Counted from the stretch's first letter, positions 964 to 43,406 are shown. The stretch is DNA of 64,000 nucleotides from Candidatus Eremiobacteria bacterium (GCA_963758295.1 CAVWUU010000001.1:151274-215273); one strand, 5' to 3'. Made by a program: numbers and translations. The notes: generated from the sequence alone by a model not told the origin.

Positions 964-994
964 GACAAGAAGAGCCACCGCGAAACGGTGGCTC
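962..994. terminator. stem-loop between convergent trpS and a lipoprotein gene
   Basis: Perfect 9-bp stem gagccaccg (972-980) / cggtggctc (986-994) with loop cgaaa. Read on the minus strand it is followed by the U-rich tract ttcttgtctt. It lies in the 56-nt gap between two convergent stop codons. Confidence 0.6.
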
Positions 995-1019
995 TCGCTC
1001 GATCTGGACGAGGGCGCCT

Positions 1020-2180: not shown

Positions 2181-2337
2181 TCCGTTGTCCTCTGAATCGA
2201 ATGAGTGCGTTTGCTCCCTGAGCATAGGAGCAGGCACGTCGCGAAACATTAGCGCTTGCTGAAGCCGGCGCCAATTTTACGCGCCTCTCATTTTGATGCG
2301 GCGATAAATGAAAGCGGGCTTAGGGCCGCTCCGGTTC

Positions 2338-2366
2338 TGGACGGTTTTGGACAAAACGTCTATAAT
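2338..2366 (+). promoter_or_regulatory. sigma70-like promoter giving a near-leaderless antitoxin mRNA
   Basis: TGGACG (2338-2343), a 17-nt spacer, then perfect TATAAT (2361-2366). The antitoxin ATG at 2373 sits about 7 nt after the -10 box and no Shine-Dalgarno can fit. Confidence 0.5.
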
Positions 2367-2372
2367 GAGAAT

Positions 2373-3469: not shown

Positions 3470-3700
3470 CTGGAGTTTCAAACGACGTAGGTCTTTGTGT
3501 GGACCCGCTAGTCTTTTGGTCCCGGTGCGCTAGGAACTACTTTTTGTTGTAACAATTTGTGCGCATGTTAGCGTGCTACGCTTCTGTTGCACGCGTGTCT
3601 TTCTCAGGGTGTTTCGGTTCGAATCACTAGGCTGCGTTTGGGACGCAGCTGTGTTTCGTATTGTTCCGTGACGCTGGAATGTTTCTTCATTGGAGGCCTC

Positions 3701-4801: not shown

Positions 4802-4824
4802 CCTGGGTCAACGGAATCCTCGAT

Positions 4825-4856
4825 AAAGCTCCGGCTCGTAACGAGCCGGAGCTTTT
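4825..4856 (+). terminator. rho-independent terminator after the lipoprotein gene
   Basis: aaagctccggctcg (4825-4838), loop taa, cgagccggagcttt (4842-4855), ending in TTTT. It starts 24 nt after the stop codon. Confidence 0.8.
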
Positions 4857-4916
4857 GCGTGCCATAAGGCCCGCTTGACCCGTGCTGCGCTTCGCGCTAC
4901 GAAAGAAAACGAAGCC

Positions 4917-11486: not shown

Positions 11487-14400
11487 ATGCGTACCCTGTC
11501 GGAAGTTTTCGCACCAGGATCACCGACGCTGCCGGAGGGCCTCCGAACGCTCGTCGTTTCGCCCGACCGAGAGTTGGAACCTGGAATGACGGTGCGCGCA
11601 TCATTCACGTTTCGCAATCAAGGCGGCGCTCCGGCATCCGGCGTGCGCGTGCGTTTCAACATACCCGATGGGCTCGTCTACCTCGTTGGGACGGGCCAGC
11701 TTGACGGCGCCGATCTCGACGACGAACAGGGTAATTCGCCGTTGCTGGCTCGCGGCGGCGCGCAGATCGGCGACGTGGCGCCCGGCGAAGAACGTCGCAT
11801 CGAAATCTCCTACAGCGTAGCGGGAGCAATCGAGAACGGCACAACGATCGAGCTGCAGGCGGCAGTCGCCTCGTTCGAACTTCCACCCGTCGGTTCGAAT
11901 ATCGTCCGCTTGATCGCCCGGAGCCGCCCGCAGTTGCAAAATGCCATCACTGGAATTGCGATTGAGGGCCGTCAGAACGCGGCGCCCGGCGCGGAAGCGC
12001 AGATCACTTTGCGTTTGCATAACGCCGGCGAATCGAGCGCCCACGACGTGGTCGTGGTGGCACCGATTCCCGAACACACGCGGTACGTTCTAAACTCGGC
12101 GCGTGTAAACGGCCGTGAGATCGAACGCGATCTCGGCGTCCCGTTCGACCGCGTATATGCACCGGTCGTCGCGCAAACGCTTGCGGCCAGCGCAAGCGCA
12201 ACGTTGGTCTATCGGGTGCGGATCGACAACCCGCTGCGAAACGGCACGCCGATCGTGGCACATGCGCAGATCGCTTCGCAAGAAACGCCCGCTTTCGCGC
12301 TCGAGGCCGCGTCGCTGAACGTCGAATCAGCGCCCGACTTGAGCGACGAGCGCACGACCTTCACCATCGAGCCGTCGCACGACGTGCGTCCCGGAAGCCG
12401 CGTGTCGATGGTGTTTTCCGCGTATAACGCCGGCTCGGCCGCCGCGGAAAACGTCACGGTGACCCTTGAGCTGCCCGATGCCCTAACGCCGGTGCGCGGT
12501 TCGGTGCAAGTCGATGGACGCCCGGTTCGCGAACGCAAAAAAGACCAGCTTTCCCTTGATTTGGGCCGTCTCGACGCAGACGAACGCGTTGAGCTGCGTT
12601 GCGAAGCGACGGTCGTTTCTCCGCTGGCCGATGCATCAGCATTGCCCGTATCGGCATTGCTTGTGTGGCAGCCGTCGGAAAATGACTCGCAGCGGCGCTT
12701 CGACCGCAGCATCGCTGTGCGCTCGGAACCGGCGCTGCCCGTTCGCCGAAATACCATTTCACGCGCGCACGGCGAGATCGTGAAGCCGGGCGAAGAAGTG
12801 GAAGCGGCAATCGTCCTTTCGAACGACGGCAGTGCCGCTGCTACGGACGTCGTCTTACACTTGCGTCCCGATCCCGGGCTCGAAGACGTGCGGCTTTTCG
12901 AGAAGAACGCTCGCATCACGCTCGATGCGGACGCCGCAGAAATCGGCTCGCTCGAGCCGTACTCGCAGCGGCGTTTCACGATGCGCGCCCGCGTGCGCGT
13001 TCCGTATGCCGATCGCAGCGAACTGCGGACCGGAGCGAGCGTGCACAGCCGCGAGCTGGGCGAGACGCCGCTGGGCGAAACGACATGGCGTGTGGATTCG
13101 CATCCGGCGTTTTCGACGCAGAGTTCGCACGTGCAGCTCGAAAGCGAAGAAGTGCTGCGACCGAATCAACTCGCCGACGTTGCCGTTCGCGTGGTGAATG
13201 CCGGCAGCGACGTCGCACACAACGTACGCGTCCGTTTGTACGTATCCCCCGAAGCGCGCTTGGAAACGGTCGACGGTGCCACGCGAGAAAAATCGAAGCT
13301 CGTGTTCGGTGAGATCGCGCCCGGCGCGCGCGCCGAAGCGCGTCTGGGAGTGCGCCTTTTGCGCAGTCTTGCAAAAGAGTACCCGGTAACGATCGATGCC
13401 GTTCTAACGGCCGACGCGATGCTTCCGGTTCCGCTCGAACGTCTCACGATCGTGACGACTGCCGAGCCGGACTTCTCCGTTGGTACGTTGCGGAGCGAAC
13501 CGGTCGAGGTCGCCGACGCCGGTGAAACGATCGAGTGGACGTTGCACGTGCGCAACGGGGGCGACGGACCGGCGCGCCGCGTGCAGATCGCCGTTGCGCA
13601 GCCGGAATCGCTCATTTACGTGCCCAACTCTACGACCGTTAACGACGTCCCCATTCGCGACACCGGCGCGTTGACGCCGCTCGCGAGCGACCGCGGAATC
13701 GTTTTGAACGACGTCGATCCCAGCGTTGAGGCGACCATTCGGTGGCGCGACGTGATTCACAACGGCCTTGGTGCCGGCGAAGCGATCTCCCGCACCGCGC
13801 GCGTCTCGTACGACGGCGATCGCGAAGACGCACTCGTTTCAAATGAATTAAAAGTTCGCGCGACGCCCGTTTTCGCCAACGCGATTCCGGGTTTACCGTT
13901 CGGGCTCGACGGCATGATCGGCCCGTCGCTTGGCGGACAACGCGCATTGACCGAAGACCGGTTTTTGGAATTGCCGCCCGCGACGCCGGTGAACGGCGAA
14001 GGTGCAGTCCATCGCGAGTGGTTGCAGCAGCAAGATTTGCCGGTGCTCGAATCGGCGAGTAATGGCCGGCACGATACCGTTTCGCTTCACGACGAAGCGA
14101 TTGTTGAAGGCGCGCTCGTCCACGAAGGAGCGGGCGTTGCGATTTCCTTCACGAGCGAGCGGCTCACGCGCACGTTGCGGTACTTGGAGGAAGCGCGCTT
14201 TAACGGGTTGATCACGCATCTCTTTGCGATCCGGGCATTCTTTCCGGAGACGCTCGGCGACACGCATGCGGGGTCGGTTACCGCGATCCGCGAAATGCTG
14301 CGCGACGAGTTCGACCGGCTCTTCATTAAACTGCGCTTGCCGAACTACGTCATCGCCGCTCGCGATATTGAAACGCCGTCGCTGCGAGCGACCGTGGAAC

Positions 14401-14744
14401 GCTTCGTTCACGACGCTTCAACGGCGCGCGGGATCCCTGCGGATGTTCCGGGCGCCGCGGTGATCTTGCGCGGCACACTCGATGCCGGCGGGTTTGGCGA
14501 AATAGCCGATACGCTTTCCGAGGCGGAGCTAGCGTCGGCGCTGCCGTGGACGCTGCTCGCCCGTGCCTTGCCCGATGCGACGCCGCAGCTGGCGCATTAT
14601 CGGAAGATGCTCGTCGATCGATTGGACGGCCTCGTGGATGCGGAGTCCGCTGAGTTCGTGGATTCGCTGCAGCGCCGGCGCGATACCGCGCTCGACGCGG
14701 CGTTGGACGTCCTTCGCACGTCGCTCTATGCAAACGCCAGGTAA
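11487..14744 (+). CDS. large DUF11/CARDB-like repeat protein, paralog 1 (no signal peptide)
   Basis: 1085 aa. About six ~130-aa modules each carry an N-x-G-x3-A-x2-V-x-V signature, for example FRNQGGAPASGVRVRF, LHNAGESSAHDVVVVA, YNAGSAAAENVTVTL, LSNDGSAAATDVVLHL, VVNAGSDVAHNVRVRL and VRNGGDGPARRVQIAV. A ~250-aa helical C-terminal domain follows. The N-terminus is hydrophilic. Confidence 0.8.
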   Translation: MRTLSEVFAPGSPTLPEGLRTLVVSPDRELEPGMTVRASFTFRNQGGAPASGVRVRFNIPDGLVYLVGTGQLDGADLDDEQGNSPLLARGGAQIGDVAPGEERRIEISYSVAGAIENGTTIELQAAVASFELPPVGSNIVRLIARSRPQLQNAITGIAIEGRQNAAPGAEAQITLRLHNAGESSAHDVVVVAPIPEHTRYVLNSARVNGREIERDLGVPFDRVYAPVVAQTLAASASATLVYRVRIDNPLRNGTPIVAHAQIASQETPAFALEAASLNVESAPDLSDERTTFTIEPSHDVRPGSRVSMVFSAYNAGSAAAENVTVTLELPDALTPVRGSVQVDGRPVRERKKDQLSLDLGRLDADERVELRCEATVVSPLADASALPVSALLVWQPSENDSQRRFDRSIAVRSEPALPVRRNTISRAHGEIVKPGEEVEAAIVLSNDGSAAATDVVLHLRPDPGLEDVRLFEKNARITLDADAAEIGSLEPYSQRRFTMRARVRVPYADRSELRTGASVHSRELGETPLGETTWRVDSHPAFSTQSSHVQLESEEVLRPNQLADVAVRVVNAGSDVAHNVRVRLYVSPEARLETVDGATREKSKLVFGEIAPGARAEARLGVRLLRSLAKEYPVTIDAVLTADAMLPVPLERLTIVTTAEPDFSVGTLRSEPVEVADAGETIEWTLHVRNGGDGPARRVQIAVAQPESLIYVPNSTTVNDVPIRDTGALTPLASDRGIVLNDVDPSVEATIRWRDVIHNGLGAGEAISRTARVSYDGDREDALVSNELKVRATPVFANAIPGLPFGLDGMIGPSLGGQRALTEDRFLELPPATPVNGEGAVHREWLQQQDLPVLESASNGRHDTVSLHDEAIVEGALVHEGAGVAISFTSERLTRTLRYLEEARFNGLITHLFAIRAFFPETLGDTHAGSVTAIREMLRDEFDRLFIKLRLPNYVIAARDIETPSLRATVERFVHDASTARGIPADVPGAAVILRGTLDAGGFGEIADTLSEAELASALPWTLLARALPDATPQLAHYRKMLVDRLDGLVDAESAEFVDSLQRRRDTALDAALDVLRTSLYANAR

Positions 14745-15211: not shown

Positions 15212-18200
15212 GTGGCTTCCTCGCTGACCGGCATTTTTGCCCCGGGCTCTCCCGCTTTGCCGGAGACCCTTCGGACATTGATTCTGGAACCGGCGCGCAG
15301 CGTTGCGCCCGGTGATAACATTCGAGTCAGCTTTTCGTTTTCGAATCTCGGCGGTGCGCCGGCGACGGGCGTGCGCGTGCGCTTCGCGCAACCGCAAGGC
15401 GTCGTCCACGTTGGCGATGCCGACGTCGTGGACGACACTGCGCTCGCTGAGGGTTCCTTTGCGGATGCGAGCGGTGCGGCCATCGGCGATTTGGAACCCA
15501 ACGCGCAGCGCCGCCTCACGTGTACGTTCCGCGTCAACGATACGATCGAAGACGCCACGGAGCTGCAGTTTCAAGCCGCGCTCGCAACCGATCAGACGCC
15601 GCTTGTCGGCTCGAACGTGGCCCACGTCGTCGTTCGCAGCCGCCCCGAACTCCAGGGCAGCGGAACGCTCGCAACGATTTCGTCGCCGTCGGTCCCGAAG
15701 CCGGGCGATGCCATCACGGTTCGCGCGACTATTGTCAACTCGGGCTCGTCGAGCGCGCACGACGTAACTCTCGTCTTGCCGGCGCCGGAAAACACCAGTT
15801 ACGTATCGCGCAGCGCGCGCATCGACGGGCGCGTCGTCAAGAGCTCCAGCGGCGAGCCGTTCGATTACGATAGCGCGACAATCATCAGCGAACGCTTGAT
15901 GCCGGGCCAAGCCGTGCTCGTCGAGTATCAAGCGACGATCGATTCACCGCTGGCCGACGGCACGCGGATCAAAGCATCGGGAACCGTCGGCTCGCGTGAA
16001 CTTTCGGAATTCGCTATTTCATCGGCGGAGGTCGTCGTCACTTCGCCCGTCGACTTCGAAGGCGAAGAGAGCGGTTTGACGATTCTGTCGGACGACGTCG
16101 TAACGCCGGGGATGCGCGTCCCGATGGTCCTGCGCGCGATGAACACCGGGACCGGCATTGCGCAACGGCTGCAGTTTTCGTTCGATCTTCCCCAAGGATT
16201 GATTTACGCTCCAGGATCCGCGCACGTCGACGGCCAGCCCGTGAGCGACGACTCTATCCCGGGCCTGGTTTTCTCACTCGGCTCGCTCGCGGCGGGACGT
16301 ATGGTCGAAGCCGGTATCGCGGCGACGGTCGCGGTTCCCGCAAGCGGCGGCGCGACAGCGCTCCCCGTGCAGGGCACGCTGCGTTGGCGAAACGGTGAGC
16401 GGCGTTTCACGCGGCGCCTTTCCGTGCGTGTTGCACCGCGGTTCAGCCGCGCCCGCAATTTCGTCGAAGCGGATCGCGGCGTCGCGCAAGCGCGCGACGA
16501 AGTGAAGTTCACGGTTCACGTTTATAACGACGGTACCGCGCCCGAACAAGACGTGCGTTTGCGTTTGATTCCGGGTTTGCACCTCGGCGATTTGCGCATC
16601 GGGGAAGACTCCGAGGAATCCCAGGCGTACGATCAACCGCTCGCGCTCGGCCTTGTGGAACCGCACAACCAGCGAACGTTCACCGTTTACGCGCGCGTCG
16701 GCTCCCGTGTGCCGGATCGTTCGAACGTTGCGCTCGGCGTCATTCTGGAACACGCCGAAGGCGCCGTCGATCTGGGAACGGCTACGGTCGTCGTGCGCTC
16801 GCGGCCGGCCATCGAAAGCGTCGTCTGGGAACTCGCGTCGCACGAACCGCTCCGGCCCAATCGCACTATCGACGTGATCGTTCGCGTCGCGAACGGAGGC
16901 ACGGACGTTCTGCGCGACGCGCGCCTTTCGCTGACCCTTCCTCCGGAACTTGCAGTGGAACGCGCCGTCGACGCGCAGCGAGATCGTGAAGGCGTAGCGT
17001 TCCAAGACGTTCCCGCCGAATCAACGCATGAAGCGCGCATGACGTTACGGCTGCTTCGCGCCGTTGCGAGCACTCGCGTGCTTACGGTCGATGCGTGGCT
17101 GCACGGCAAAGGCATCAGCCCCGTTCAGCTCTCACCGCTCGAAGTGCCGGCATACGCGGAACCGCAATTCGCACAAAGCTCGCAAGTCTTGGCGATTCCA
17201 GCCGAACACGTGAACGCCGGTGAGCGGCTGTTCTATGAAATTCGCTTGCGCAACGACGGCGACGGCCCGGCAGAGCGTTTGGTGATACGCGTCGTGCCGA
17301 CGAATTTAGCGGTATACGTGCCGGCATCGACCACGCTCAACGGCATGCCGGTGAACGACGATTCGGGCGTTTCACAGTTGTGGTCGCAACGCGGACTCGT
17401 CCTAGCCGATGTCAATCCGAATGTCGAACTGCGCATCCGCTGGGAAACGATCGTAATGTCGCCGCTCGCGGCCGATACGCCGATCGATACGCGAGCCGTC
17501 TTCGAGTGGGATCAAGGCAAGACCCTCGCGCTGACCGCACCCACGGTTCGCGTTCAAGCGCAGCCTTCGCTCAGCGAATCGGCCGAAGGAACGCCCATTT
17601 CGATTGCGCGCGTCTTTTCCGCCGAGGGGCCCGTGTACGAAGCGGCGCCGCTGCCGCCCGAACCCGAACCGGTTCCCGAACCGCCGCAGCCGCCGGTGGA
17701 AGCCGCTCCGCCGCGCATGATTGCCGAGGTTATAGCGGCTGAAACGGTCGAGTTTCCCTCGGTGCTTCCGATGATCGGTGCTCCCGAACCGCCGCAAGCG
17801 GCGCAGGCCGTGCCCGTTCTCTACGCCGATTTCTCGCCGGACCGTCTCGACAACACGATTCGCATGATCGAACGCAGCAATGTCGGCGGACTTGTGCAGC
17901 ATCTTTTTGCAATGCGCATGCTGCTGTTCCCCGAACATGCGATCAATGCGTCGCCGCAGCTCAGCGGGTCGTTTGCGAACGCTAACCGGCTCTTACGCGC
18001 GCCGCTGGAAAAATTGTTCGTCCGTCTAGGTACGCCGCGCTTGCAAGTCAGCGGCAAGGACATCGAAGATCGTGAAAGCCGCGACGGGCTGCGCAACCTG
18101 ATCGACGATCTGTCACTTGCGCCGACGGCTTCGCCGCAGCCGCCCCCGCCGGGCGTCATTCGAATCGAAGGCGCGGTCGAACTTGACGTCGTGCAGTCGC

Positions 18201-18475
18201 TCGCGCTCTCGCTCGAATCGTTACCGCTCGGTGCCGTGGCGCCTTGGCTCATCAACGCGCAATTGCTCGGCACTTCAATTGTCTACGATCGAACGAAATC
18301 CGAAACGCTCGAAGCGTATCGGAGCGAGCTTTTGAACGTCTTTACGGTGCTGGCGGAATTACCGATCATGGAGTTTCACCGCGTGCTCACGACGAGCGTA
18401 AATCGCACGCTCGATGAGTCGCTCGCCGCGGTGCTCGAAGCACTGCGCGGCGCCGCGCACATTGCTGTCGAGTAA
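15212..18475 (+). CDS. large DUF11/CARDB-like repeat protein, paralog 2 (no signal peptide)
   Basis: 1087 aa with a GTG start after GGAGAGGGAAAG. It shares the N-terminal motif IFAPGSPALPETLRTL with paralog 1 (VFAPGSPTLPEGLRTL), the same six-module layout, a Pro-rich linker (PLPPEPEPVPEPPQPPVEAAPP) and the conserved helical C-terminal domain (GGLVQHLFAMRMLLFPE versus NGLITHLFAIRAFFPE). Confidence 0.8.
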   Translation: MASSLTGIFAPGSPALPETLRTLILEPARSVAPGDNIRVSFSFSNLGGAPATGVRVRFAQPQGVVHVGDADVVDDTALAEGSFADASGAAIGDLEPNAQRRLTCTFRVNDTIEDATELQFQAALATDQTPLVGSNVAHVVVRSRPELQGSGTLATISSPSVPKPGDAITVRATIVNSGSSSAHDVTLVLPAPENTSYVSRSARIDGRVVKSSSGEPFDYDSATIISERLMPGQAVLVEYQATIDSPLADGTRIKASGTVGSRELSEFAISSAEVVVTSPVDFEGEESGLTILSDDVVTPGMRVPMVLRAMNTGTGIAQRLQFSFDLPQGLIYAPGSAHVDGQPVSDDSIPGLVFSLGSLAAGRMVEAGIAATVAVPASGGATALPVQGTLRWRNGERRFTRRLSVRVAPRFSRARNFVEADRGVAQARDEVKFTVHVYNDGTAPEQDVRLRLIPGLHLGDLRIGEDSEESQAYDQPLALGLVEPHNQRTFTVYARVGSRVPDRSNVALGVILEHAEGAVDLGTATVVVRSRPAIESVVWELASHEPLRPNRTIDVIVRVANGGTDVLRDARLSLTLPPELAVERAVDAQRDREGVAFQDVPAESTHEARMTLRLLRAVASTRVLTVDAWLHGKGISPVQLSPLEVPAYAEPQFAQSSQVLAIPAEHVNAGERLFYEIRLRNDGDGPAERLVIRVVPTNLAVYVPASTTLNGMPVNDDSGVSQLWSQRGLVLADVNPNVELRIRWETIVMSPLAADTPIDTRAVFEWDQGKTLALTAPTVRVQAQPSLSESAEGTPISIARVFSAEGPVYEAAPLPPEPEPVPEPPQPPVEAAPPRMIAEVIAAETVEFPSVLPMIGAPEPPQAAQAVPVLYADFSPDRLDNTIRMIERSNVGGLVQHLFAMRMLLFPEHAINASPQLSGSFANANRLLRAPLEKLFVRLGTPRLQVSGKDIEDRESRDGLRNLIDDLSLAPTASPQPPPPGVIRIEGAVELDVVQSLALSLESLPLGAVAPWLINAQLLGTSIVYDRTKSETLEAYRSELLNVFTVLAELPIMEFHRVLTTSVNRTLDESLAAVLEALRGAAHIAVE

Positions 18476-32430: not shown

Positions 32431-35400
32431 AACTCAAGAAGATCAAAGCTTTCGGCTTTAAGACTTTTGCCGAACCGACTACGCTCGATTTTTCGGGTGG
32501 TATCACCGCGATCGTCGGGCCGAACGGTTCGGGCAAATCGAATATGGTCGATGCCTTTCGCTGGGTGCTGGGCGAGACGTCCAGCAAAAGCTTGCGCTCG
32601 GGCAAATTAGAAGACGTTATTTTCGCCGGCAACGATAAACGTAAGCCGCTCGGTCTCGCGGAAGTCTCCATGACTTTCGACAATGCCGATCGCAAACTCG
32701 CGACGGACTACAGCGAAGTCGAGATCACGCGCCGCACGTACCGCGCCGGCGAAAGTGAGTACTTCATCAACCGCAACCAGGTTCGTTTGCGCGACATCGT
32801 CGAGCTGCTTGATGGGCACCGGGCTTGGGCCGGGCTCGTACTCGATCGTCTCCCAGGGACAGATCGACTCGATCCTTACGAGCAAACCCACCGAACGCCG
32901 CGCCCTCTTCGAAGAAACGGCCGGCATCAACAAGTTCCTGGCGCGCAAGAACGAGTCGATGCGCCGCCTGGAGCAAACCGAGCAAAACGCGATCCGCATC
33001 AACGATTTGATCGCGGAGCTCGAGCGCCGCATTCCCGAGCTGGAAACGCAAGTGCGCCGGGCCAAGCGGTATCGCAAGGTGAGCGCCCGCGTTCGCGATC
33101 TCGAGATTCTGTCGTACATGCGCGCGAGCGAGTCGCGCCGTATGGAGCGCGAAACGCTGCGCGCGGAACTCGAGAAGAACGAAGAGCTGCGCACGGGCGC
33201 GTCCGCGAAAGCGGCACAGCTCGGTGCCAACCTTGCGGAACTGCGCACGCGCGCCTACCAGCAAGAACTGCAGTTGGAAGAGCTGCGCTCGGAAACGCAA
33301 GGGAAGCGGGCCGAATTAGCGCGCCTCGAAGCGGACTACGCCGCTGCGCTCGCGCGCCGCGAAACGCTCGAACGGCAGTCGACGCAGACCTCCGAAGACG
33401 CGGCGCGGGTCGAAGCCGAACGCGAAGAGCTCGCCGCAACGATCGCGTCGCTCGAAGAGCAGCTGGCGCCCCTCGCCGGCGAACTCGAAGGCGCGCGCGA
33501 GAAAGAACTTGCGGCGCAGACGGCGCTTGCGCAAGCGCGCAAACAGCTCGACGAGATCTTCACGCAATTGCGCGAAGTTGAATCGTCGGCCGCGGAACTT
33601 GCCGCCCGGAAAGCCGAGCGCCGCGTTCAGGGCGAAAACCTGCGCGCCGAAGCCGAACGTCTCGACCAAGAAGCGCACGCCGCGCGCGAGCGCGTCGCCC
33701 AAGCGGAAATCGCTACCGGAACCGCAACGCAGAATTATGCCCAGCGCGAATCGCAGTTGGCGTCGCTAGAAGAACAGCAGATGGAAGCGCGTACGCGTGC
33801 CGAGCAGGCCGAACGCGCCGTTACGCAAGCGCAGGAAGATTTGGCCCGCGCCGTTCGTCAGCATCGCGAACATACCGGCGAAGTAAAAGCCGCCGAATCG
33901 CGCCTGCATACGATCGAAGAACTCGAAGCATCTCTCGAAGGGCACGTACCCGGCACGAGGGCGGTCGTGGAAGCGGTGCAGCGCGGCGAACTGCGTGGCA
34001 TCGAAGGCATCGTTTCTAACCTCATCACCACCGACGAACGGTATGCCCGCGCCATGGACGTTGCCTTCGGCGCGCGCCTTTCGAACATCGTCACTTCGCG
34101 CTCGGAAGACGCCGAACGCGCGATCGAATTTTTGAACCGCAGCGAACAGGGTCGCGCGACGTTCTTACCGCTCGACACGCTCGCGAACCGCGAAGCGCGT
34201 CAAATGACGGCCGAATTGCATCGCACGCACGGCGTGATTGGTTACGCGCACTCGCTCATCCGCACCGAGCCGAAGTACGAGGGCGTCGTTCGGTTCCTCG
34301 TCGGCAACGTGCTCGTAGTCGATACGTTGCAGACCGGCATTCATCTCGTGCGCGAGCGGGGGTTCCGCGATACGATTGTTACGCTTACGGGCGAGCAGAT
34401 CGCCGGCGGCGGAGCAATCACGGGCGGACGCTTCCGTCGCGAGAAATCGATCCTTTCGCGTCGCGTGCAAGCTGAAACGCTGCGCGAAGCGCTGGCTGAA
34501 ATGCGCGCGAACCTCGATCGCTTCGAGCGCGAGGCGCAGCAGGCAACGCAACGCTCGGAGCAGGCGACGTCCGAGCGCAGCGCCGCACGCGATGCGCTAG
34601 CGAAACTCGAGCTTCAAATGGCCGAAGTTCGCACGGAAATGGCCGCGGTTTCGGCTGAGCTCGAACGCATGCAAGGCGTAATGCTAACCGCCCACGCGCA
34701 AGTCGAAGAGCTCGCGGCGCGCGCGGTCGAGGCTCGCGAGCGCGAACACACGCTCGAAGGCGACGAACCCGACCAGGTTCACAGTCAAGAAGAACGCCGG
34801 CGTCTCGAAGCGGAGCTCGCAAAGGCGCGCGAAGAAATCGCGCACGCTGAGGCATCACAGGCAGAAGTCGCGCGCCGCGCGGCGGATCTGCGCGAACGGA
34901 CGGCTGCGCTTACGGCGCAACGCGACGCTGCTACCGGCCGTCTCGGCATGCTGGATCAAAACAGCGAACGCGCGCAACACGCGCGCGAGCAGATGCTTGC
35001 GGAGATCGGGCGGCTCGTGGAGCAGACACGAACGGCTCACGCGCATATCGAAGGCTTGCGCGCGGGCGTGAGCGATCTCGATGCGAAACTCGACGTCGCC
35101 CGCCGCCAACGCGAAGCGATGGCCAACGATCAGCTCGAGATCGAATCGTCGCTTCGCAGCGCCGAGAACGACGAACGCGAAGCGGCGGCAGGCGGCGAAC
35201 GCCACCGTACGCGTCTTGCGGAAATCGAAGCCGAGCTTGGCATGCTGGTTTCGCAGTTCGCGCAGAATCCCGCTACCGACGAAGAACTGCGCGACGTCGA
35301 AGAACGGTACAAAGAAGAGTCGGACCAGGTAGCCGACGAGTTGCCGCGTCTGCGTGAAGAACTCGCGCGTCTCTCGGCTAACGTCAACCTCAATGCCGAA

Positions 35401-35994
35401 TCGGAGCGTGAAGAACTCGGCGAACGCGAGACGTTCTTGCGCACGCAGCTCGAGGACCTCGCGAAAGCGCGCGAAACACTGCTGGAGTCGATCCGCGAAA
35501 TCGAAGCGCAGAGCCAAGCGCAGTTCAATGAAGTCTTCAATCAAGTCTCGGAAGCGTTTTCCGAGATGTACACCAAGCTGTTCCCGGGCGGACAGGCCAA
35601 GATGTGGCAGACGAATCCGGAGAATCTGTCGGAGACGGGCATCGAGCTTTCGGTGCAGCCGCCGGGCAAACGGCTTATGCCGCTTACGGCGCTTTCGGGC
35701 GGCGAACGCGCGATGACGGCGGCGGCGCTGATCTTTGCGCTCATCAAGGTGAAGCCGTCGCCGTTCTACCTGCTCGACGAAGTAGATGCGGCGCTCGACG
35801 ACATGAACGTCGAACGTTTCTCGAACCTGGTGCGCGAGATGGCGGCCGAATACCAGATGATCATCGTCACGCACAACAAGAAGACGATGGAGCTGGCCGA
35901 CCGCATGTACGGCGTAACCATGCGCGAACCCGGTGTGAGCTCGGTAATAGCGGCCGCGCTTACCGAACGCGAACCGGAGCTCGCCCTTGCCTGA
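32427..35994 (+). pseudogene. smc: chromosome segregation ATPase SMC, interrupted by an apparent 1-nt insertion (frameshift near 32814-32816)
   Basis: Frame 1 (from 32427) encodes the SMC head N-terminus (GPNGSGKSN...[29 protein letters not shown]) and then turns to nonsense. The next frame continues [21 protein letters not shown] through the coiled coils, hinge and C-terminal head (LSGGERAMTAAALIFA, LDEVDAALD) to 35994. Removing one G from GGG at 32814-32816 restores ...[14 protein letters not shown].... Confidence 0.85.
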
Positions 35995-37561
35995 CACGAC
36001 GAAGCCGGCCGCGCTCTTCTCGCTTTCCGATAAGACGGGCGCAGTCCAGCTCGCGCGCGCGTTGCACGATAGCGGCACGGTGATTTACGCCACCGGCGGA
36101 ACGAAACGGCATCTCGAAGAGAACGGCATAGCCGCCTTTGACGTGGGCGACATGACGGGATTCCCGCCGCTCTTCGACGGACGCGTGAAGACGCTGCATC
36201 CGAAGGTCTTCGGGGCGATTCTCTACGATCGCAGCAACCCCGACCACAGCGCGCAGGCCGAGAAATACGCCATCGCGCCAATCACCACGGTGGTTGTGAA
36301 CCTCTATCCCTTTGAGGCAACCGTGGCGCACGAGGGCACGACGCTTACCGAAGCCATCGAGCAAATCGACATCGGCGGCGTTTCGCTGCTGCGCGCGTCG
36401 GCAAAGAATTTTGCGCACGTTTCCGTGCTGACGCATCCTTCGCAGTATGCGGAATTTCTCGCGGCCTTCACTGCGGGCGAAATCCCGACCGCGTTGCGCC
36501 GAAAGTATGCCGTTGCCGCGTTCGAGCGTACTGCCGAGTACGATGCCGCGATTTCTCACTATCTCACGACGGAAGGCCGCGTGCTTCCGAGCGATCTGCC
36601 CGGCGCGCTGACGTTGACGCTTCCGCTCAAGCAGCGTTTGCGCTATGGAACGAACCCGCAGAATCGCGCGGCGTTCTACTTGGACCGCGCGGACCGTCTG
36701 CCGGAGCAATTGCACGGAAAGGCGCTTTCGTACAACAACTTGCTCGATCTCGACGGAACGCTGCGCATGCTTTCGCGCGCGCCGCTCGGTGCCGACTTCG
36801 GCAGCGAACACGAGCGCTTCATTCGCGCGGCTGTCGTGAAACACACGGTTCCGTGCGGAGTCGCTCAACGCTCGACGGTCGGAAAAGCGGTCGCCGACGC
36901 GCTCCAAGCCGACCCGGTCTCGGCGTTCGGCGGTATCGTGGCCACCGACGGCCGTATCGATCTCGAAAGTGCGGAGTCGCTGGCCAAATTTTTCCTGGAA
37001 ATCGTCGCCGCACCCGACTTCGACGAAGACGCGCTCGCGCTTCTGCGCAAAAAGAAAAACCTGCGCGTGATGCGATTCGTGCAATCGCTGCCCGACGAGC
37101 TCGCGAAAGAATTGCGTGTGCGCAGTGCGCTCGGCGGCGTGCTCGCCGAAGATGACGGCCCGGATTCGCCTGCCGAAGAATGGCGCGTTGTCTCGAAGCG
37201 CCGGCCGACCTCGCAAGAATGGCACGATCTGGCGTTTGCATGGGACGTCGTACGGCACGTGAAGTCGAACGGTATCGTCATCGCCAAAGGGGGAACGACT
37301 CGCGGCATCTGCGCCGGCCAAACCAATCGCGTAAGCGCGGTGCAAATTGCGGCGCATCGAGCGGGGGAGGAAGCGCGCGGCGCCGCATGCGCAAGCGACG
37401 GATTCTTCCCGTTTGCGGACGGCCTTGAAGCGGCTGCTGCCGGCGGCTGCAGCGCCGTCATCGCGCCCGGCGGTTCGGTTCGCGATGAGGAAGTTATTGC
37501 TGCAGCCGATCGACTCGGCGTCTCGCTCGTATTCTCGAATTACCGCTACTTTTTGCACTAG
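35987..37561 (+). CDS. purH: bifunctional AICAR formyltransferase / IMP cyclohydrolase
   Basis: 524 aa. The N-terminal MGS-like domain has GRVKTLHP. The C-terminal AICARFT domain ends in [10 protein letters not shown]. Confidence 0.95.
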   Translation: MPDTTKPAALFSLSDKTGAVQLARALHDSGTVIYATGGTKRHLEENGIAAFDVGDMTGFPPLFDGRVKTLHPKVFGAILYDRSNPDHSAQAEKYAIAPITTVVVNLYPFEATVAHEGTTLTEAIEQIDIGGVSLLRASAKNFAHVSVLTHPSQYAEFLAAFTAGEIPTALRRKYAVAAFERTAEYDAAISHYLTTEGRVLPSDLPGALTLTLPLKQRLRYGTNPQNRAAFYLDRADRLPEQLHGKALSYNNLLDLDGTLRMLSRAPLGADFGSEHERFIRAAVVKHTVPCGVAQRSTVGKAVADALQADPVSAFGGIVATDGRIDLESAESLAKFFLEIVAAPDFDEDALALLRKKKNLRVMRFVQSLPDELAKELRVRSALGGVLAEDDGPDSPAEEWRVVSKRRPTSQEWHDLAFAWDVVRHVKSNGIVIAKGGTTRGICAGQTNRVSAVQIAAHRAGEEARGAACASDGFFPFADGLEAAAAGGCSAVIAPGGSVRDEEVIAAADRLGVSLVFSNYRYFLH

Positions 37562-37634
37562 GAAAACGCAACGAGAGCCGCCGCTCTCAGAATTTCGTCA
37601 GCGAATTATCAGTTCGTCCGTATCATAATGGTGA

Positions 37635-38915
37635 GTGCGAAAACGGCGGCCGGAATGGCGATGGGCCGCGGCGCTCGGCGTCGCGCTGTTTCTTTTGTGT
37701 GGTGTGCGGTCATTTGCCGAGGAACGGCCGGGCGAATGGACGCAGTTCCGGCAGAACCCTCGCAATAACGCGGTTGTCGCGAGCGATCTGCGGGCGAAGT
37801 GGCGGATAGAAACCGGTTTCTCGTTTTCGTCAAGTCCGAGCGTATCGGGAACAACGCTTTTCATTGGCAACAACGGCGGCGAGCTTTACGCGGTCGACCT
37901 GCGCAACGGCAACGTGCGTTGGCAAAAACGTGTGTCGGCGCCTTTGATGTCGAATCCGATTCTCTGGAAAAACCTCGTCATCGTCGGCGAGGGAAACCAG
38001 AACTCGTTCAATGGCGACGACGTCCATCCGGTCATCGTGGGCAACGGTGAGAACGCGCTCATCGCGTATGACGCAAAGACCGGTGAAGAACGCTGGCAGC
38101 TGCCGCTGCATGGCAGCGGAATGCCGACCGCCGCGATCGTTCACGGCATGCTTTTGCATCACGACGGCTCCGGCGAATTCATCGCAGCCGATCCCGCAAC
38201 CGGTCAAGTCACGTACCGGCGCGATCTCAAAAGCGTCGCCTCCATGAGCGCGATCCTTCCCATCGGCAACGGCACCGTCGTGACAAACGGCATGCAGCCC
38301 ACCGCCGTGCAAGCGCTCGACGTGCGCACCGGCAATCCGGTCTGGTCATACGCTTTCGACGCGTCGGCGTCGGGTGTCGGCGATTGTCCGGCAGCGGCGG
38401 GAAACGGCTACATCGTTTGCGATTACGTCTCCGCCACGCACGGTGCAGCGCTGCACGTCGGCGACGACGCAGTCGAGCACGCGTATGCTTTGAGCGCAAC
38501 ATCCGGCACGCTGTTATGGGACACAAAATTCGATGATGCCGGCACGCTGCCGCAAGGAAACGAATCGGCGATTCCGCTCGTGAGCGGCGGTACGGCGTTT
38601 ATCGGCAGCGCCGTCGCGCCGGCGATGAACGCCATCAACACGGCGACCGGGAAAGTCCTGTGGCACCTGGTCGTTCGCGGTCCGGTCAAAGACGGACCGG
38701 TTGAAAAGAACGGTGCGATTTACTTCGGCGATTTAGGCGGCTACTTGTGGGCCGTCGATGCCGCTACCGGCAACGCCATCGGCAGAAAGAACGTCGGCGT
38801 ACCATTCAACGTCGGATCTCCCGTCATCGTCGGAAACACCCTTGTGATCGGCAGCCAAACGGGGGCGCTCATCGCCCTGCCGCTCGATGAAGTGCGCCGG
38901 TCGCAGGATGGGTAA
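37635..38915 (+). CDS. secreted PQQ-like / BamB-like beta-propeller repeat protein
   Basis: Signal peptide [19 protein letters not shown]. Repeated motifs of the type G.LYAVD...G...W ([57 protein letters not shown]) are typical of PQQ-like propeller blades. Confidence 0.75.
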
Positions 38916-38919
38916 ACCC
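38878..38919 (+). repeat. direct repeat B, copy 1 (3' end of the propeller gene)
   Basis: tgccgctcgatgaagtgcgccggtcgcaggatgggtaaaccc recurs at 40283-40324 with 2 mismatches by hand alignment. Confidence 0.85.
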
Positions 38920-38922
38920 GAA

Positions 38923-39042
38923 GCCGGCTGCACGGCCGTCATCGCACCCGGCGGATCGGTTCGAGACGGAGAAGTCATCGCGGCTGCCGATCGCCTTGGC
39001 GTCTCGCTCGTATTCTCGAACTACCGATATTTCCTACACTAA
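38923..39042 (+). pseudogene. orphan duplicate of the purH 3' end (last ~39 codons plus stop)
   Basis: It encodes [39 protein letters not shown], versus the purH end [39 protein letters not shown]. Over the last 108 nt I count about 19 differences, almost all synonymous. There is no upstream coding continuation. Confidence 0.85.
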
Positions 39043-39080
39043 GAGTGTTCTGCAGGGCACGGGCATAATGCTGTGACCCT

Positions 39081-39518
39081 TTAAGCGTACACCTTGTGGC
39101 TTGCGATCGAACTGTATTGGCCGACAATAAGTTGCGTTTCGATCAGTTCTTTATTCTCGCCGGTTAGCAGTGTCAATGCGTACTTACCGGGCCGCGAAAA
39201 GACTACATTCTCTAAATCAACACCGTGAATAAAAAAATCCCCATCCGGCAGTATCGGCGGACAATGCAAACGCTGATCGTCCGTTTCAGGACACGAAACA
39301 AGCAAATCGATGCTCGTCGCGCCTTCGACTTCCGCCCACGTAGACGCCAAGTACAATGACGTACGGTCAGAGCGCTTGCTGCTATGAGGCGGGAACGCCG
39401 ATGTTCCTAAATCGCGAAGGCGGCTTGGAAATCTTGTCAGCCGGAGTCGTTCGACAACACCTAGCCAGTCGGCCGAAGTCTCGTTGACAACAACTTTTTG
39501 GCAAATGGCGAACCGCAT
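39081..39518 (-). CDS. hypothetical protein in the low-GC cassette
   Basis: ATG 39518 (MRFAICQKVVVNETSADWLGVVERL...) lies 4 nt after the upstream membrane-protein stop. GC is visibly lower than the surroundings. The pattern (F.P.GKY.L.L...) vaguely recalls small beta-sandwich DUF families. The alternative start is 39578. Confidence 0.45.
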   Translation of the reverse strand: MRFAICQKVVVNETSADWLGVVERLRLTRFPSRLRDLGTSAFPPHSSKRSDRTSLYLASTWAEVEGATSIDLLVSCPETDDQRLHCPPILPDGDFFIHGVDLENVVFSRPGKYALTLLTGENKELIETQLIVGQYSSIASHKVYA

Positions 39519-39522
39519 AGCT

Positions 39523-39807
39523 TCACAGGGCGATCCGCCGCTTAGGGAGGTCTTCGCCCTTAATCGCGGCAACCGCAAAAATGACCGTTCCGACTACGAG
39601 CGCCACATTCCCAACGGACAGAAATCTGGAATCGCGCATTGCGACCGTTGCCAGGACGCTGGCTGTTATCCCGAAAAGCCAAACTATGTACGATGCTTTA
39701 ACCAGCAAAGACGTTGGTGGAATGGATCTCCAGCCCCTGAAGAGCAGAAGCGAGATACAAAGCTGAGCAGCCATCATCGCAAAGTGGCTGGAGTCCAAAT
39801 GGACCAT
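39523..39807 (-). CDS. hypothetical small membrane protein in the low-GC cassette
   Basis: The ATG at 39807 is preceded by GAGGT. About three hydrophobic helices are present (AAQLCISLLLF, IVWLFGITASVLATVA, VALVVGTVIFAVAAI). Confidence 0.5.
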   Translation of the reverse strand: MVHLDSSHFAMMAAQLCISLLLFRGWRSIPPTSLLVKASYIVWLFGITASVLATVAMRDSRFLSVGNVALVVGTVIFAVAAIKGEDLPKRRIAL

Positions 39808-40282
39808 TGTTACCTCGGGCAACTGAGAAAAATAGCTAGTGCCTGATCTGGTTGCGCGAGTTATCGCTGAAGTCTTGCGGTGTCGCTCCAGGAATATACA
39901 TTACGTCTCCTTAGTTCTTAGGTGCGTCCATGCAACGGGATTAAACTCTTCGAGTTTCCACATCCCCGCAATGGCTTATCGCTTCCAAGAATTAGTTTGC
40001 AATAGCCGGGTCTTGAGACAAAGTACCTGATACTACCGCTACCCGGAAAGATTCTTTGACGTATTGCGTCCGAGCTCACGTGAAAAGTGGCCGGCGATTA
40101 TGGATCGCTGCGCCATGAGCGTCATGGCGTTCATGCTGAGTCTGTGTGAGCGAAGCTCGTTCGCGGAAGAGCCTCGGCTCAATGAACGTGCGGCACCATC
40201 AGGAGCCGTATGGCGAGCCAATTGAAAATGCTTGATCGCGCGATCTCGCACTCGGCATTCCGTGAGCCCACTGTCACGGGAA

Positions 40283-40324
40283 TGCCGCTCGATGAGGTGC
40301 GCCGGTCGCAGGATGGGTAAATCC
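40283..40324 (+). repeat. direct repeat B, copy 2 (orphan copy of the propeller-gene 3' end)
   Basis: tgccgctcgatgaggtgcgccggtcgcaggatgggtaaatcc. Similarity to the propeller gene starts abruptly here. The upstream sequence is not propeller-like. Confidence 0.85.
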
Positions 40325-40329
40325 CTAGT

Positions 40330-40731
40330 ATGCCGAGCTTCTTGCATACGTCTATTTTCGTTAACGACATGAATGAATCGATCGGATTCTATCGCGACAA
40401 ATTAGGATTGAAACTCCTGGACGGCCCATTCCACTATCCCGGAAATGCCGACATGGCGTTCGTCGGCAACGATTGGAATTCGTATATCGAGCTGGTGTAC
40501 GACTTGGAAGAGCACCCGCCGTACGAGCTGGGAAACCGGTACGAACATCTAGCCCTCGTTTCGGACGGCGATCTCAAAGAGTACGTTGATGAATTGAAAC
40601 GCAAAGGCGTAAAGATTCTCAAGGACGTCTACAAGTCGCCCGGCGGAACGCGCGCGATCGCCTTCATCGAAGATCCCAACGGCATCCCGGTTGAATTGCT
40701 GGAGCCGCGAAAAGCGAAGTCGCTCGCTTAG
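40330..40731 (+). CDS. VOC-family protein (glyoxalase I / lactoylglutathione lyase-like)
   Basis: 133 aa with the beta-alpha-beta-beta-beta module pattern (HTSIFVNDMNESIGFYRDKLGLK ... YEHLALVSDG ... AFIEDPNGIPVELLE). GC is lower than the window average. Confidence 0.8.
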   Translation: MPSFLHTSIFVNDMNESIGFYRDKLGLKLLDGPFHYPGNADMAFVGNDWNSYIELVYDLEEHPPYELGNRYEHLALVSDGDLKEYVDELKRKGVKILKDVYKSPGGTRAIAFIEDPNGIPVELLEPRKAKSLA

Positions 40732-40997
40732 TGCGGCGCCCCGCGCCGCTCGTTAACGATGATGTATGCAAGGATCGTTGCGGAAACGAGCGTCAGCCAC
40801 AAGTTCGTAAGCGCGACCGGGATGGAATGGATCGCGAAGGCGTAGGGCACGTAGAGCAACGAGCCAAGCGCAATCAACCCATAAGTCCACTTTGAGAGAT
40901 CCGCCGTGTCCCGCGTACGGACGACTTTCAGCAGTTGCGGAATCTGCGTGACGGCGACGATCAGCGTCGCCGCGTAGCCAAGAAGCTCGATGCCCAT
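40728..40997 (-). CDS. SemiSWEET / PQ-loop family small transporter
   Basis: 89 aa from ATG 40997 with three TM helices and the PQ motif (TQIPQLLKVVRTRDTADLS). The longer track ORF start at 41141 overlaps hisS. Confidence 0.65.
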   Translation of the reverse strand: MGIELLGYAATLIVAVTQIPQLLKVVRTRDTADLSKWTYGLIALGSLLYVPYAFAIHSIPVALTNLWLTLVSATILAYIIVNERRGAPH

Positions 40998-41080
40998 CGA
41001 CCGCTTTTTCCCGCCCGGCAAGCGACCTATATCGCAGGGCTCTAGGATTCGCCTCCGGCCTTTAGAACCAGGCTCAGGCC

Positions 41081-42352
41081 ATGCCGTCCAAGATAACCGC
41101 GCCGCGCGGCACGCAAGACATTCTGCCGCCGCAGTCGGCACAGTGGCACGCGCTCGAAACTCGCATTCACGAGCTTGCGCGCCGCTCCGGCTATAGCGAA
41201 ATCCGAACGCCGACTTTCGAGTCGACGGATCTCTTCGTGCGCGGCGTCGGCGAGACGACCGACATCGTCGAAAAAGAAATGTACACGTTCGTCGACAAAG
41301 GCGATCGCAGCATGACGCTGCGCCCGGAGTGGACGGCGCCGGTCGTACGTGCCGCGTTGGAACACAACCTCTTCACGCAAGGACCTCAGCGGCTGTATTA
41401 CATCGGGCCGATCTACCGCTACGAGCGGCCGCAAAAAGGCCGCTACCGGCAAGCGCATCAGTTCGGCGTGGAATGCACCGGATATCAAGGTCCCGAAGCC
41501 GATTTGGAAGTGATTGCGCTCGCGTGGGAACTGGTGCGGAGCTGCCACATCAACGACGCCGTGCTGAATGTCAATTCCATCGGCGACGACGTTTGCCGTC
41601 CGCGCTATCGTGAGGCTTTGCTCGAGCACTTCCGGCCGCATCTTGCCGAGCTTTCGGAGGATTCGCAACGCCGCCTGGAACGCAATCCGTTGCGTTTGCT
41701 CGACAGTAAAGATGAAAAGGACCGGCGGTTCGTCGAGACCGCGCCGACGTTTGAATCGGTGCTGTGCGACGATTGCCGCGCCCACTTTGAAACGTTGAAA
41801 GCCTACCTCGACGCGGTCGGCATCCCGTACGTCGTAAACTCGCGGATCGTGCGCGGCTTGGATTATTACACCCGCACGGTTTTCGAGATCGTATCGAGCG
41901 CGCTCGGCGCGCAGTCGACCGTTTGCGGCGGCGGGCGGTACGACGGCCTCGTGCGATCGCTCGGCGGTCCCGACGTGCCGGCGGTCGGCTTCGCTCTGGG
42001 GATCGAACGGTTCTTGATGATGCTCGAAGCCCTTAGTACAGAGCCGGCCGGGGCTCGCAGCGGCGTGCAGGCGATCGCATTGGGTGCGCAGGCACGCGCC
42101 GTTTTGGTTCCGCTGGTGGCCCGCTGGCGCCGCGAGCTTCGTCAGCCGGTCTTCATGGATTTCGAGGAACGCAAGGTTCCGGCGCAATTCAAGATTGCCG
42201 ACCGGAACGGCGCCCGTTACGCGGCGATCCTCGGTTCGAACGAAATTGCAGCGGGCGAGCTGATCTTACGCGATTTGGAAACGCGCACCGAACGCCGCCT
42301 GGCGCTCGAGGGAGCAGACCTTGCGGCTGAGCTTGGCGAAGGCAACGCATAA
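41081..42352 (+). CDS. hisS: histidine--tRNA ligase
   Basis: PRGTQDILP start, class II motifs (YRYERPQKGRYRQAHQFG, GGGRYDGL) and a C-terminal anticodon-binding domain. Confidence 0.95.
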   Translation: MPSKITAPRGTQDILPPQSAQWHALETRIHELARRSGYSEIRTPTFESTDLFVRGVGETTDIVEKEMYTFVDKGDRSMTLRPEWTAPVVRAALEHNLFTQGPQRLYYIGPIYRYERPQKGRYRQAHQFGVECTGYQGPEADLEVIALAWELVRSCHINDAVLNVNSIGDDVCRPRYREALLEHFRPHLAELSEDSQRRLERNPLRLLDSKDEKDRRFVETAPTFESVLCDDCRAHFETLKAYLDAVGIPYVVNSRIVRGLDYYTRTVFEIVSSALGAQSTVCGGGRYDGLVRSLGGPDVPAVGFALGIERFLMMLEALSTEPAGARSGVQAIALGAQARAVLVPLVARWRRELRQPVFMDFEERKVPAQFKIADRNGARYAAILGSNEIAAGELILRDLETRTERRLALEGADLAAELGEGNA

Positions 42353-42354
42353 AC

Positions 42355-42816
42355 ATGGCACACGAAGAAGAACACGAGACGATCTCGTCGCTGCTCGAAA
42401 TCATGCACGAGCACGATCTCGACCGGATCAAAGTCAAAATGGGCGATGCGGTGTACGAGCTGGTACGTCGCGAAGCGGGCGCTCAGCTCGTCGCGCCGAT
42501 GCATGCGGTCACGCAGGCTGCCTCTACGGCAGCGGCAGCGGCCGCACCGGAACCCGGGGCCGCTGCCTTGCCCGCAAATGCCAAACGTATCACCGCTCCG
42601 CTCACGGGCGTTTTCTATCGCTCGTCGTCGCCCGATGCCGAGCCGTTCGTGAGCGCTGGTTCACGCGTCGAGAACGGCGATGTGCTGTGCATCTTGGAAG
42701 CGATGAAACTTTTCAACGAAATCCAAAGCGACTACAGCGGCACGATCTTGCGCATTTTTCCTGAAAACGGGGAACTCGTCTCCCAAGGCGAGGATCTCTT
42801 CTGGGTTCAACCGTGA
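42355..42816 (+). CDS. accB: biotin carboxyl carrier protein (AccB-like)
   Basis: Ala/Pro-rich linker, then a biotinyl domain with the EAMKL motif (CILEAMKLFNEI). Confidence 0.85.
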   Translation: MAHEEEHETISSLLEIMHEHDLDRIKVKMGDAVYELVRREAGAQLVAPMHAVTQAASTAAAAAAPEPGAAALPANAKRITAPLTGVFYRSSSPDAEPFVSAGSRVENGDVLCILEAMKLFNEIQSDYSGTILRIFPENGELVSQGEDLFWVQP

Positions 42817-43406
42817 TCGACGTCAAAGGCAAGCGCGGCTTCGCGGAGTTGATCGCCGAGCGGCGGAATCTTCTCGATGCGCCGCACTATCAGACGCAGG
42901 TGGAAGCCATCGCCGATGCGCTCGTCGAGGCGTTGCGCGCGAACAAAAAGGTGCTTTGGTGCGGAAATGGCGGAAGCGCCGCCGAGGCGCAGCATATGGC
43001 CGCGGAGCTTTCCGGCCGGTTCTTACGCGAACGCCCGGGCCTTTATAGCGAAGCGCTTTCCGTAAATACCTCGACCCTCACCTGCGTGGGCAACGATTAC
43101 GGCTATGACTACATCTTCTCGCGTCAAGTCGAAGCGTTTGCCCAGCCGGGCGACGTCCTTATCGGCATGACGACGAGCGGCACGTCGAAGAACGTGGTGC
43201 TCGCGCTGGAAGCCGCAAAGAAAAAGGGCGCGATTACCGTGGCCTTCACCGGCAACGGGGGCGGAACAGTCGCGGAAATTTCCGATCTCGTCCTGATGGG
43301 ACCGGACGGCTATGCGGCCATCGTTCAAGAGGTGCATCAGGTCATGGCGCACATCGTCTGCGACCTGGTCGAACAGCGCCTCATATTCGAGGACGGCATC
43401 GCGTGA
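42813..43406 (+). CDS. gmhA: D-sedoheptulose-7-phosphate isomerase (SIS domain)
   Basis: GNGGSAAEAQHMAAEL, TSGTSKNV and QEVHQVMAHIVC are typical of GmhA. It is followed by heptose kinase and adenylyltransferase genes. Confidence 0.88.
   Translation: MIDVKGKRGFAELIAERRNLLDAPHYQTQVEAIADALVEALRANKKVLWCGNGGSAAEAQHMAAELSGRFLRERPGLYSEALSVNTSTLTCVGNDYGYDYIFSRQVEAFAQPGDVLIGMTTSGTSKNVVLALEAAKKKGAITVAFTGNGGGTVAEISDLVLMGPDGYAAIVQEVHQVMAHIVCDLVEQRLIFEDGIA

Follow-up and report, generated by a model that had tools for sequence, protein, structure and literature searches.

Two hotspot alleles in tandem between purH and VOC: a probable additive recombination scar in an Eremiobacterota genome

The present analysis concerns a 64,000-nucleotide (nt) stretch of DNA from an uncultured soil bacterium of the Eremiobacterota, hereafter called the window (all positions are counted over the whole stretch), and more precisely the interval between two of its genes, purH and a VOC/glyoxalase-family gene (VOC). 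This interval carries two copies of the 3' end of purH (A and A') and two copies of the 3' end of a gene encoding a PQQ-like beta-propeller protein (B and B'), interleaved in the order A-B-A'-B'. On the plus strand, SMC is followed by purH, a 73-nt spacer, the propeller gene, A', a low-GC segment, B' and VOC, and then come a minus-strand SemiSWEET/PQ-loop gene and hisS (Table 1). We consider it probable that this arrangement is an additive recombination scar that was left without any mobile element in a purH-VOC hotspot, two alleles of the hotspot having been placed in tandem by one-sided homology and a single illegitimate junction. Unit 1, or allele 1 (37439-38919), consists of the purH end followed by the spacer and by the propeller gene, a state also found in the sister species. 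Unit 2, or allele 2 (38920-40324), which comprises a purH end, a cassette and the final 12 codons of the propeller gene, would come from another congener.

The interleaved gene ends, already pointed out in a first-pass annotation of the window, were recovered both by a repeat finder and by a self-BLAST of the whole window, in which no other internal repeat is as strong as these two pairs. A (37444-37563) and A' (38925-39044) match over 120 nt with 82.5-83% identity (E = 7e-28), the full extent of their similarity being 123 nt (about 80-83% identical), whereas B and B' are identical at 40 of 42 positions (E = 1.4e-11) and share a 25-nt identical block. The earlier hand counts of 19 differences in 108 nt and 34 identical residues out of 35 for A and A' proved exact when recounted over 37454-37561, as did the two differences in 42 nt reported for B and B'. 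The third repeat is a 48-nt match (E = 5e-4). It lies (11610-11657 versus 15339-15385, 81% identity) in two neighbouring open reading frames (ORFs; 11487-14744 and 15212-18475, each encoding about 1085 amino acids) that are probably paralogues.

The identification of A' as a purH end stands, but the span first given to it (38923-39042, about 39 codons) had to be revised to 38920-39044, i.e. 40 codons and the stop codon. At 38920, A' starts with GAA GCC GGC TGC (EAGC), a natural variant of purH in relatives; therefore, A' directly abuts B, which ends at 38919, without any filler. The similarity between A and A' continues 2 nt beyond the stop codon, and the reading frame of A' differs from that of the propeller gene. 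The longest identical run shared by A and A' (23 nt) is internal rather than located at the boundary of the repeat; at the left boundary, identical runs are limited to 7-11 nt, and beyond it A' still consists of genuine purH sequence.

The purH sequence assigns the window to the Eremiobacterota, the best species representative having 85% protein identity. The genes keep the order SMC-purH-VOC-hisS-BCCP across >100 fetched loci, but the length of the purH-VOC gap in 62 Eremiobacterota loci lies between 9 nt and 5.7 kb; in 21 of them it is at most 73 nt. The cargo of this gap is unrelated between genomes and includes genes for an MFS transporter, an Lhr helicase, an HNH nuclease, EamA and GGDEF proteins, phosphoesterases, a Vgb lyase with a PQQ propeller, a large sensor kinase, a beta-lactamase-like protein and a type II restriction-modification system. 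A complete type II restriction-modification set (m5C methylase, HNH nuclease, Vsr and NgoMIV-type endonuclease) occupies the gap of locus L005 (9710-12728), and an HNH_2 nuclease gene is found in that of L010. No integrase or transposase gene was detected in the unit of the window, in 20 neighbouring genes or in 30 scanned cargo ORFs of relatives, which agrees with the first-pass statement that none is present.

The closest lineage with data includes the loci L162-L165, the 2.25-Mb contig L170 and further Logan contigs (L173 and L176 belong to the same species); its purH is 95% identical to that of the window at the protein level and about 83% identical at the DNA level. In L162-L165 and L170, the arrangement is purH-propeller-VOC, with the stop codon of the propeller gene 9 nt ahead of the start codon of VOC and nothing extra, and the same propeller-VOC junction is present in L173 and L176. 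In L170, SMC and purH (749-4059 and 4201-5909) are split into several called genes, which probably reflects long-read frameshift errors rather than real pseudogenes. The propeller orthologue located between purH and VOC is 86% identical to that of the window in L162-L165 and L170, and 67% identical in L166, which is more distantly related. In L167, a third close lineage whose purH is about 92% identical, VOC directly follows purH without any cargo. Three states of the interval thus occur among congeners, i.e. no cargo (L167), the propeller gene (L162-L166 and L170) and the propeller gene plus the cassette (the window), and they bear out, together with the variable gap and the unrelated cargo of the 62 loci, the proposal that a hotspot lies downstream of purH. 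The propeller gene, whose hydrophobic N-terminus is a probable signal peptide, is the resident hotspot cargo of this clade. Besides this variation of cargo, no B-like sequence was found other than at propeller-gene ends, and none upstream of VOC in propeller-less genomes; this rules out that B and B' are copies of a conserved regulatory element upstream of VOC.

The comparison with L162 delimits the additional DNA precisely. In BLASTN alignments, window positions 32940-38919 correspond to L162 1-5962 and window positions 40283-43057 to L162 5921-8690; therefore, the window exceeds L162 by exactly 1405 bases, which the 42-nt repeat flanks and which are made of A', the 1.24-kb cassette and B'. 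B' is placed relative to VOC just as the intact propeller-gene end is in L162, to which it is identical at 39 of 42 positions. At the two positions where B and B' differ, B' has the L162 state and B has states of its own (A at 38891 and C at 38917) that are found neither in B' nor in L162.

An additional segment lying between direct repeats is exactly what a single crossover would produce. In a Campbell-type insertion, a circularised fragment from the lineage with allele 2, carrying a B'-like end, A' and the cassette, would have entered the chromosome by a single homologous crossover in the 42-nt propeller end, duplicating it as B and B'. The 25-nt identical block would suit such an event, and the low divergence of the two copies would be natural if both were hybrids of donor and recipient sequences. 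However, RecA-dependent crossover usually requires at least about as much homology as these 42 nt with their core of 25 nt, or more, and the chromosomal fragment would first have had to circularise exactly at the joint between the end of B' and the start of A'. The topology of this insertion is not distinguishable by sequence alone from that of the one-sided additive join. We regard it as rather unlikely.

The first-pass annotation proposed that A' derives from a diverged but once-functional purH allele, and our results argue in the same direction. Between A and A', the synonymous divergence (dS) is about 1.03 and the nonsynonymous divergence (dN) about 0.06, giving a dN/dS of about 0.06. When changes are polarised by L162, seven of the nine that occurred on the A' branch are synonymous, versus 2.5 expected under neutrality (P = 0.002), and the two amino-acid differences (S to T and E to G) are variants found in the functional purH of relatives. 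Since A' is intact and its differences are almost all synonymous, it originated from a functional purH and not from a decayed local duplicate; neutral decay of such a duplicate is ruled out by this dN/dS, by the synonymous bias of the A' branch and by the unrelated interiors of the two units. Furthermore, the identity of A' is 80-83% both with A and with the purH ends of L162, L166 and L167; A' is thus equidistant from all sampled congeners, which points to a fourth, unsampled congener lineage as its source. A' is therefore a piece of a working purH of this congener, orphaned too recently to have decayed. B' lacks private changes over its 42 nt (P = 0.046 at the rate of the A' branch), which also fits a recent event.

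These observations bear on another way of obtaining the same order. Tandem duplications are the commonest rearrangement in bacteria, and A-B-A'-B' is formally one: the segment bounded by the purH end and the propeller end would have been duplicated in situ, the cassette would have replaced the second propeller gene, and purH would later have diverged or been replaced. However, the pattern of divergence of A' is that of purifying selection, with no disabling change, and B' shows no decay. This scenario would also involve at least three events and would need a replacement between lineages anyway. It is therefore quite improbable in our view.

The segment between A' and B' is compositionally foreign: its GC content is 52.6% and its GC content at third codon positions (GC3) 0.54-0.62, versus 61% and 0.73-0.78 in resident genes. 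It is not similar to its counterpart in unit 1, formed by the spacer and the propeller gene. As initially described, it is a low-GC cassette of two genes, in the form of two tightly spaced ORFs on the minus strand, here called c94 and c145 after the length of their products in amino acids. No match to the cassette was found in plasmids, phages, viral contigs, the 176 fetched loci or Rfam, and its proteins match no family in PADLOC, PHROGs, NCBIfam or Pfam. c94 was called as a gene (P0121) in the source contig; it has no homologue besides itself among 5.8 billion clusters, and its hydrophobic stretches are predicted to form about three membrane helices. A 165-amino-acid ORF likewise has no homologue among the 5.8 billion clusters. 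c145 has one full-length but distant homologue, P0122 (31% identity, E = 4e-7, 1.84 billion representatives searched), and is therefore a genuine gene, although a very rare one. c145 and P0122 (147 amino acids) make up a two-member family with a common C-terminal VYA and without any match in Pfam, NCBIfam, PADLOC or PHROGs; the AlphaFold model of c145 (predicted local distance difference test score, pLDDT, of 31) is unusable. The right part of the cassette is presumably the promoter region of c94 and c145. Its single weak promoter-like match, on the minus strand, is at chance level, and promoter, terminator and tRNA scans were uninformative.

Islands that integrate into the ends of genes typically leave orphan 3' gene ends beside their cargo. 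The orphan purH end next to the cassette could suggest the site-specific integration, at the 3' end of purH, of a small element carrying a replacement end, A and A' then being its attL and attR sites. However, no integrase is encoded in the unit, in the 20 neighbouring genes or in the scanned cargo of relatives, A and A' are only about 82% identical with their longest identical run inside the repeat, the sister species has the resident propeller gene without any second purH end, and B and B' would be left unexplained. Such an integration appears very improbable. An island bearing its own integrase is rejected, as there is neither a recombinase in or beside the unit nor an identical core at the repeat boundary, and so is an insertion sequence or other transposon, since the repeat finder detected no inverted repeats at the ends of the cassette, the flanking repeat is 42 nt long and there is no transposase.

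The only novel junction is the one that joins B to A' (38919/38920). At most a short run of C could serve as microhomology there. This junction is absent from all other fetched loci, and exact-protein look-ups returned no match for the 51-amino-acid ORF that spans it, nor for c94, c145 or the PQ-loop, purH and VOC products. The only independent assembly of this strain, the short-read Logan contig L001 (ERR11594400), matches window positions 37301-38916 with 100% identity. It terminates 3 nt before the junction, where B and B' first differ. Given this position and the absence of any shared 30-mer reaching there, the end of L001 looks like a fork in the read graph, and it may reflect a second continuation in that sample, from either an un-inserted strain or the donor genome.

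An assembly artefact was considered, in which co-occurring strains carrying allele 1 and allele 2 would have been set in tandem by a chimeric read or by a false duplication of the haplotype type. No independent contig spans the junction, L001 stopping just before it, and the look-ups of the junction-spanning ORF and of the cassette genes match nothing else, which speaks for such an artefact. However, the junction does not lie at a sequence common to both alleles and therefore offers no path for a mis-join of the graph. The contig is 871,862 nt long, which suggests that long reads spanned this 3-kb region, and the sequences left and right of the junction align collinearly, with equal identity, to a single sister genome. 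The end of L001 at the first B/B' difference would also be better explained by a real fork of the reads. An artefact is therefore unlikely.

One-sided homologous recombination appears to be the most likely route to this structure. In the lineage that provided allele 2, foreign DNA would earlier have replaced the spacer and the whole propeller gene except its last 12 codons; the existence of this lineage, as well as the mechanism and the direction of the transfer, is what we infer from the features described above. In this homology-facilitated illegitimate recombination, one end of the DNA arriving from the related species would have paired with a flanking core gene, and its other end would have been joined without homology at 38919/38920. 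Since one end paired and the other was joined illegitimately, the incoming allele would have been added and the resident one not replaced. Two directions can be envisaged: either the propeller unit was imported, through an anchor in purH, into a genome bearing the cassette, or the cassette unit was imported, through an anchor on the VOC side, into a genome bearing the propeller gene.

Site patterns were counted at this one locus in three taxa (the window, L162 and L167). In purH, positions 36671-37561 show patterns of 66:66:68 versus a background of 715:397:406 (chi-square p = 8e-4): the 3' third of the gene (from about 36.7 kb) loses the signal that elsewhere makes the window and L162 sisters, and differs in this from the 5' part. 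The dS to L162 is 0.81 for codons 1-228 of purH and 1.37 for codons 229-524, ranges from 1.04 to 1.16 across the propeller, VOC and PQ-loop genes, and is 0.80 in hisS. On the VOC side, the patterns (99:50:54) are like the background. The sliding identity between the window and L162 shows no sharp breakpoint, the shift in purH being visible only in the three-taxon patterns and in dS. This shift is compatible with a left homologous anchor, but remains suggestive, as synonymous sites are near saturation and three taxa at one locus cannot show which genome recombined. Over the whole of 36671-41000, dS to the sister species is 1.04-1.6, versus about 0.8 in SMC, in the 5' part of purH and in hisS; a wider tract around the hotspot may thus have been exchanged.

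Several points weigh against an additive join of two alleles. The lineage that would carry allele 2 (purH-cassette-B'-VOC) was found in no collection searched, and the B/A' junction was seen only in the window's own contig. A divergence of about 18% between donor and recipient, as seen between A and A', makes a poor substrate for RecA-dependent pairing. Three-taxon counts over the 123 nt make neither A nor A' the sister of L162, which fits either direction of transfer. Furthermore, B and B' (5%) are significantly less diverged than A and A' (20%; Fisher p = 0.026), and a single donor explains this low divergence only if the B region evolves slowly. It should also be emphasized that no orphan purH end was found in the other loci (>60), the additive outcome being rare and the duplication not a general trait of the hotspot.

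Table 1. Features of the window in and around the purH-VOC interval.
Feature	Positions	Strand	Basis or remark
SMC	32683-35994	+	Upstream of purH
purH (AICARFT/IMPCHase)	35987-37561	+	Pfam PF01808/PF02142; upstream core gene of the hotspot
A, last 40 codons of the functional purH, stop codon and 2 nt	37439-37563	+	Repeat comparison
PQQ-like beta-propeller gene, 426 amino acids	37635-38915	+	Pfam PF13360/PF13570/PF01011
B, final 12 codons of the propeller gene, stop codon and 4 nt	38878-38919	+	Repeat comparison
Single novel junction, 4 nt beyond the propeller stop codon / purH codon 485	38919-38920		
A', orphan purH 3' end, 40 codons and stop codon	38920-39044	+	Intact
Low-GC cassette, foreign, 52.6% GC	39045-40282		Composition, homology searches
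c145, 145-amino-acid protein	39081-39518	-	ORF
c94, 94-amino-acid protein	39523-39807	-	ORF; directly upstream of c145, same orientation
Non-coding right part of the cassette	39808-40282		No convincing ORF
B', orphan propeller-gene end	40283-40324	+	5 nt ahead of the VOC start codon
VOC/glyoxalase-family gene	40330-40731	+	Pfam PF00903; downstream core gene of the hotspot
SemiSWEET/PQ-loop gene	40728-40997	-	Between VOC and hisS

The identities first attributed to purH, the propeller gene and VOC agree with their Pfam domains (Table 1). purH starts with a TTG codon and its first 8 nt overlap the end of SMC, stop codon included (35987-35994); the same overlap was called in L162-L164 and L167. 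The VOC-hisS interval (window 40732-41080) is also variable in the loci L002-L176, where it ranges from a 16-nt overlap to about 5 kb. It contains only the SemiSWEET/PQ-loop gene in the window and in the L162 species, to which a DUF1980_C gene is added in L166 and L167, and most other relatives carry a different insert of about 1.2 kb.

The structure described here does not represent a new kind of system, but cleanly illustrates, in a natural genome of a phylum that has received little study, a process that is already known. Homology-facilitated illegitimate recombination is described for Acinetobacter, Streptococcus pneumoniae, Pseudomonas stutzeri and conjugation in E. coli (PMC3240628, and references 41, 42 and 47 of PMC5361080). 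As in these cases, foreign DNA would here have been added next to a homologous anchor gene, with one homology-free junction and without the involvement of a recombinase or transposase. Unlike the experimental cases, the event would here be deduced from a natural genome, its partners are alleles of one locus, so that the product resembles a tandem duplication of differing alleles, and the divergence of the anchor is high (about 18%).

One-sided-homology illegitimate displacement that leaves orphan 3' ends is also treated, for Rhs, contact-dependent inhibition (CDI) and type VI secretion system (T6SS) effector-immunity loci, in PMC5361080 (and its references 44-46). In these arrays, the incoming allele brings a new 3' end and its cargo, while the old end and its cargo are kept downstream as orphans; A' and the cassette likewise lie downstream of an intact purH and propeller gene, as in arrays formed by C-terminal displacement. 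However, the displaced gene is here the housekeeping gene purH and not a polymorphic toxin gene, the retained cargo is not a recognisable immunity gene, the cassette proteins matching no family, and there is one displaced unit, in one of >60 loci.

Hotspots free of mobile genetic elements, with recombination at the core genes that flank them, were reported in 2017 (PMC5635113). The purH-VOC interval resembles them by its two conserved core genes, its fast-changing and unrelated cargo, the lack of recognisable mobility genes and, perhaps, the signs of recombination in one flanking core gene. In those hotspots, the usual outcome is a clean replacement by double crossover, whereas the window would preserve a rare additive intermediate with both alleles and the breakpoint. 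The duplicated gene 3' end beside inserted DNA also recalls the islands that tyrosine recombinases insert at the 3' ends of tRNA or protein genes. The window differs from these islands by the lack of an integrase and of an identical boundary core, by the 18% divergence of its repeats and by its second, interleaved repeat pair.

The evidence for an integrase-free turnover of hotspots by host recombination has been mostly statistical; at this locus, the alleles, the breakpoint and an undecayed orphan end are preserved together. The locus would document an exchange between species that are about 18% apart, by which cargo was added rather than swapped. For annotation, copy-number and pangenome pipelines, it also means that orphan gene ends can mimic pseudogenes or mis-assemblies. 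Furthermore, the purH-VOC and VOC-hisS intervals are places in which to seek strain-specific genes in Eremiobacterota.

A broader proposal, which we find doubtful but worth stating, is that the tandem two-allele state is a recurrent, segregating intermediate of integrase-free gene gain in the hotspots of Eremiobacterota. If so, the end of L001 would reflect the presence in one sample of inserted and un-inserted genomes, or of donor and recipient ones. Whole hotspot alleles would then move between species with their own flanking gene ends as homology arms, and additive joins would let the cell keep both cargos.

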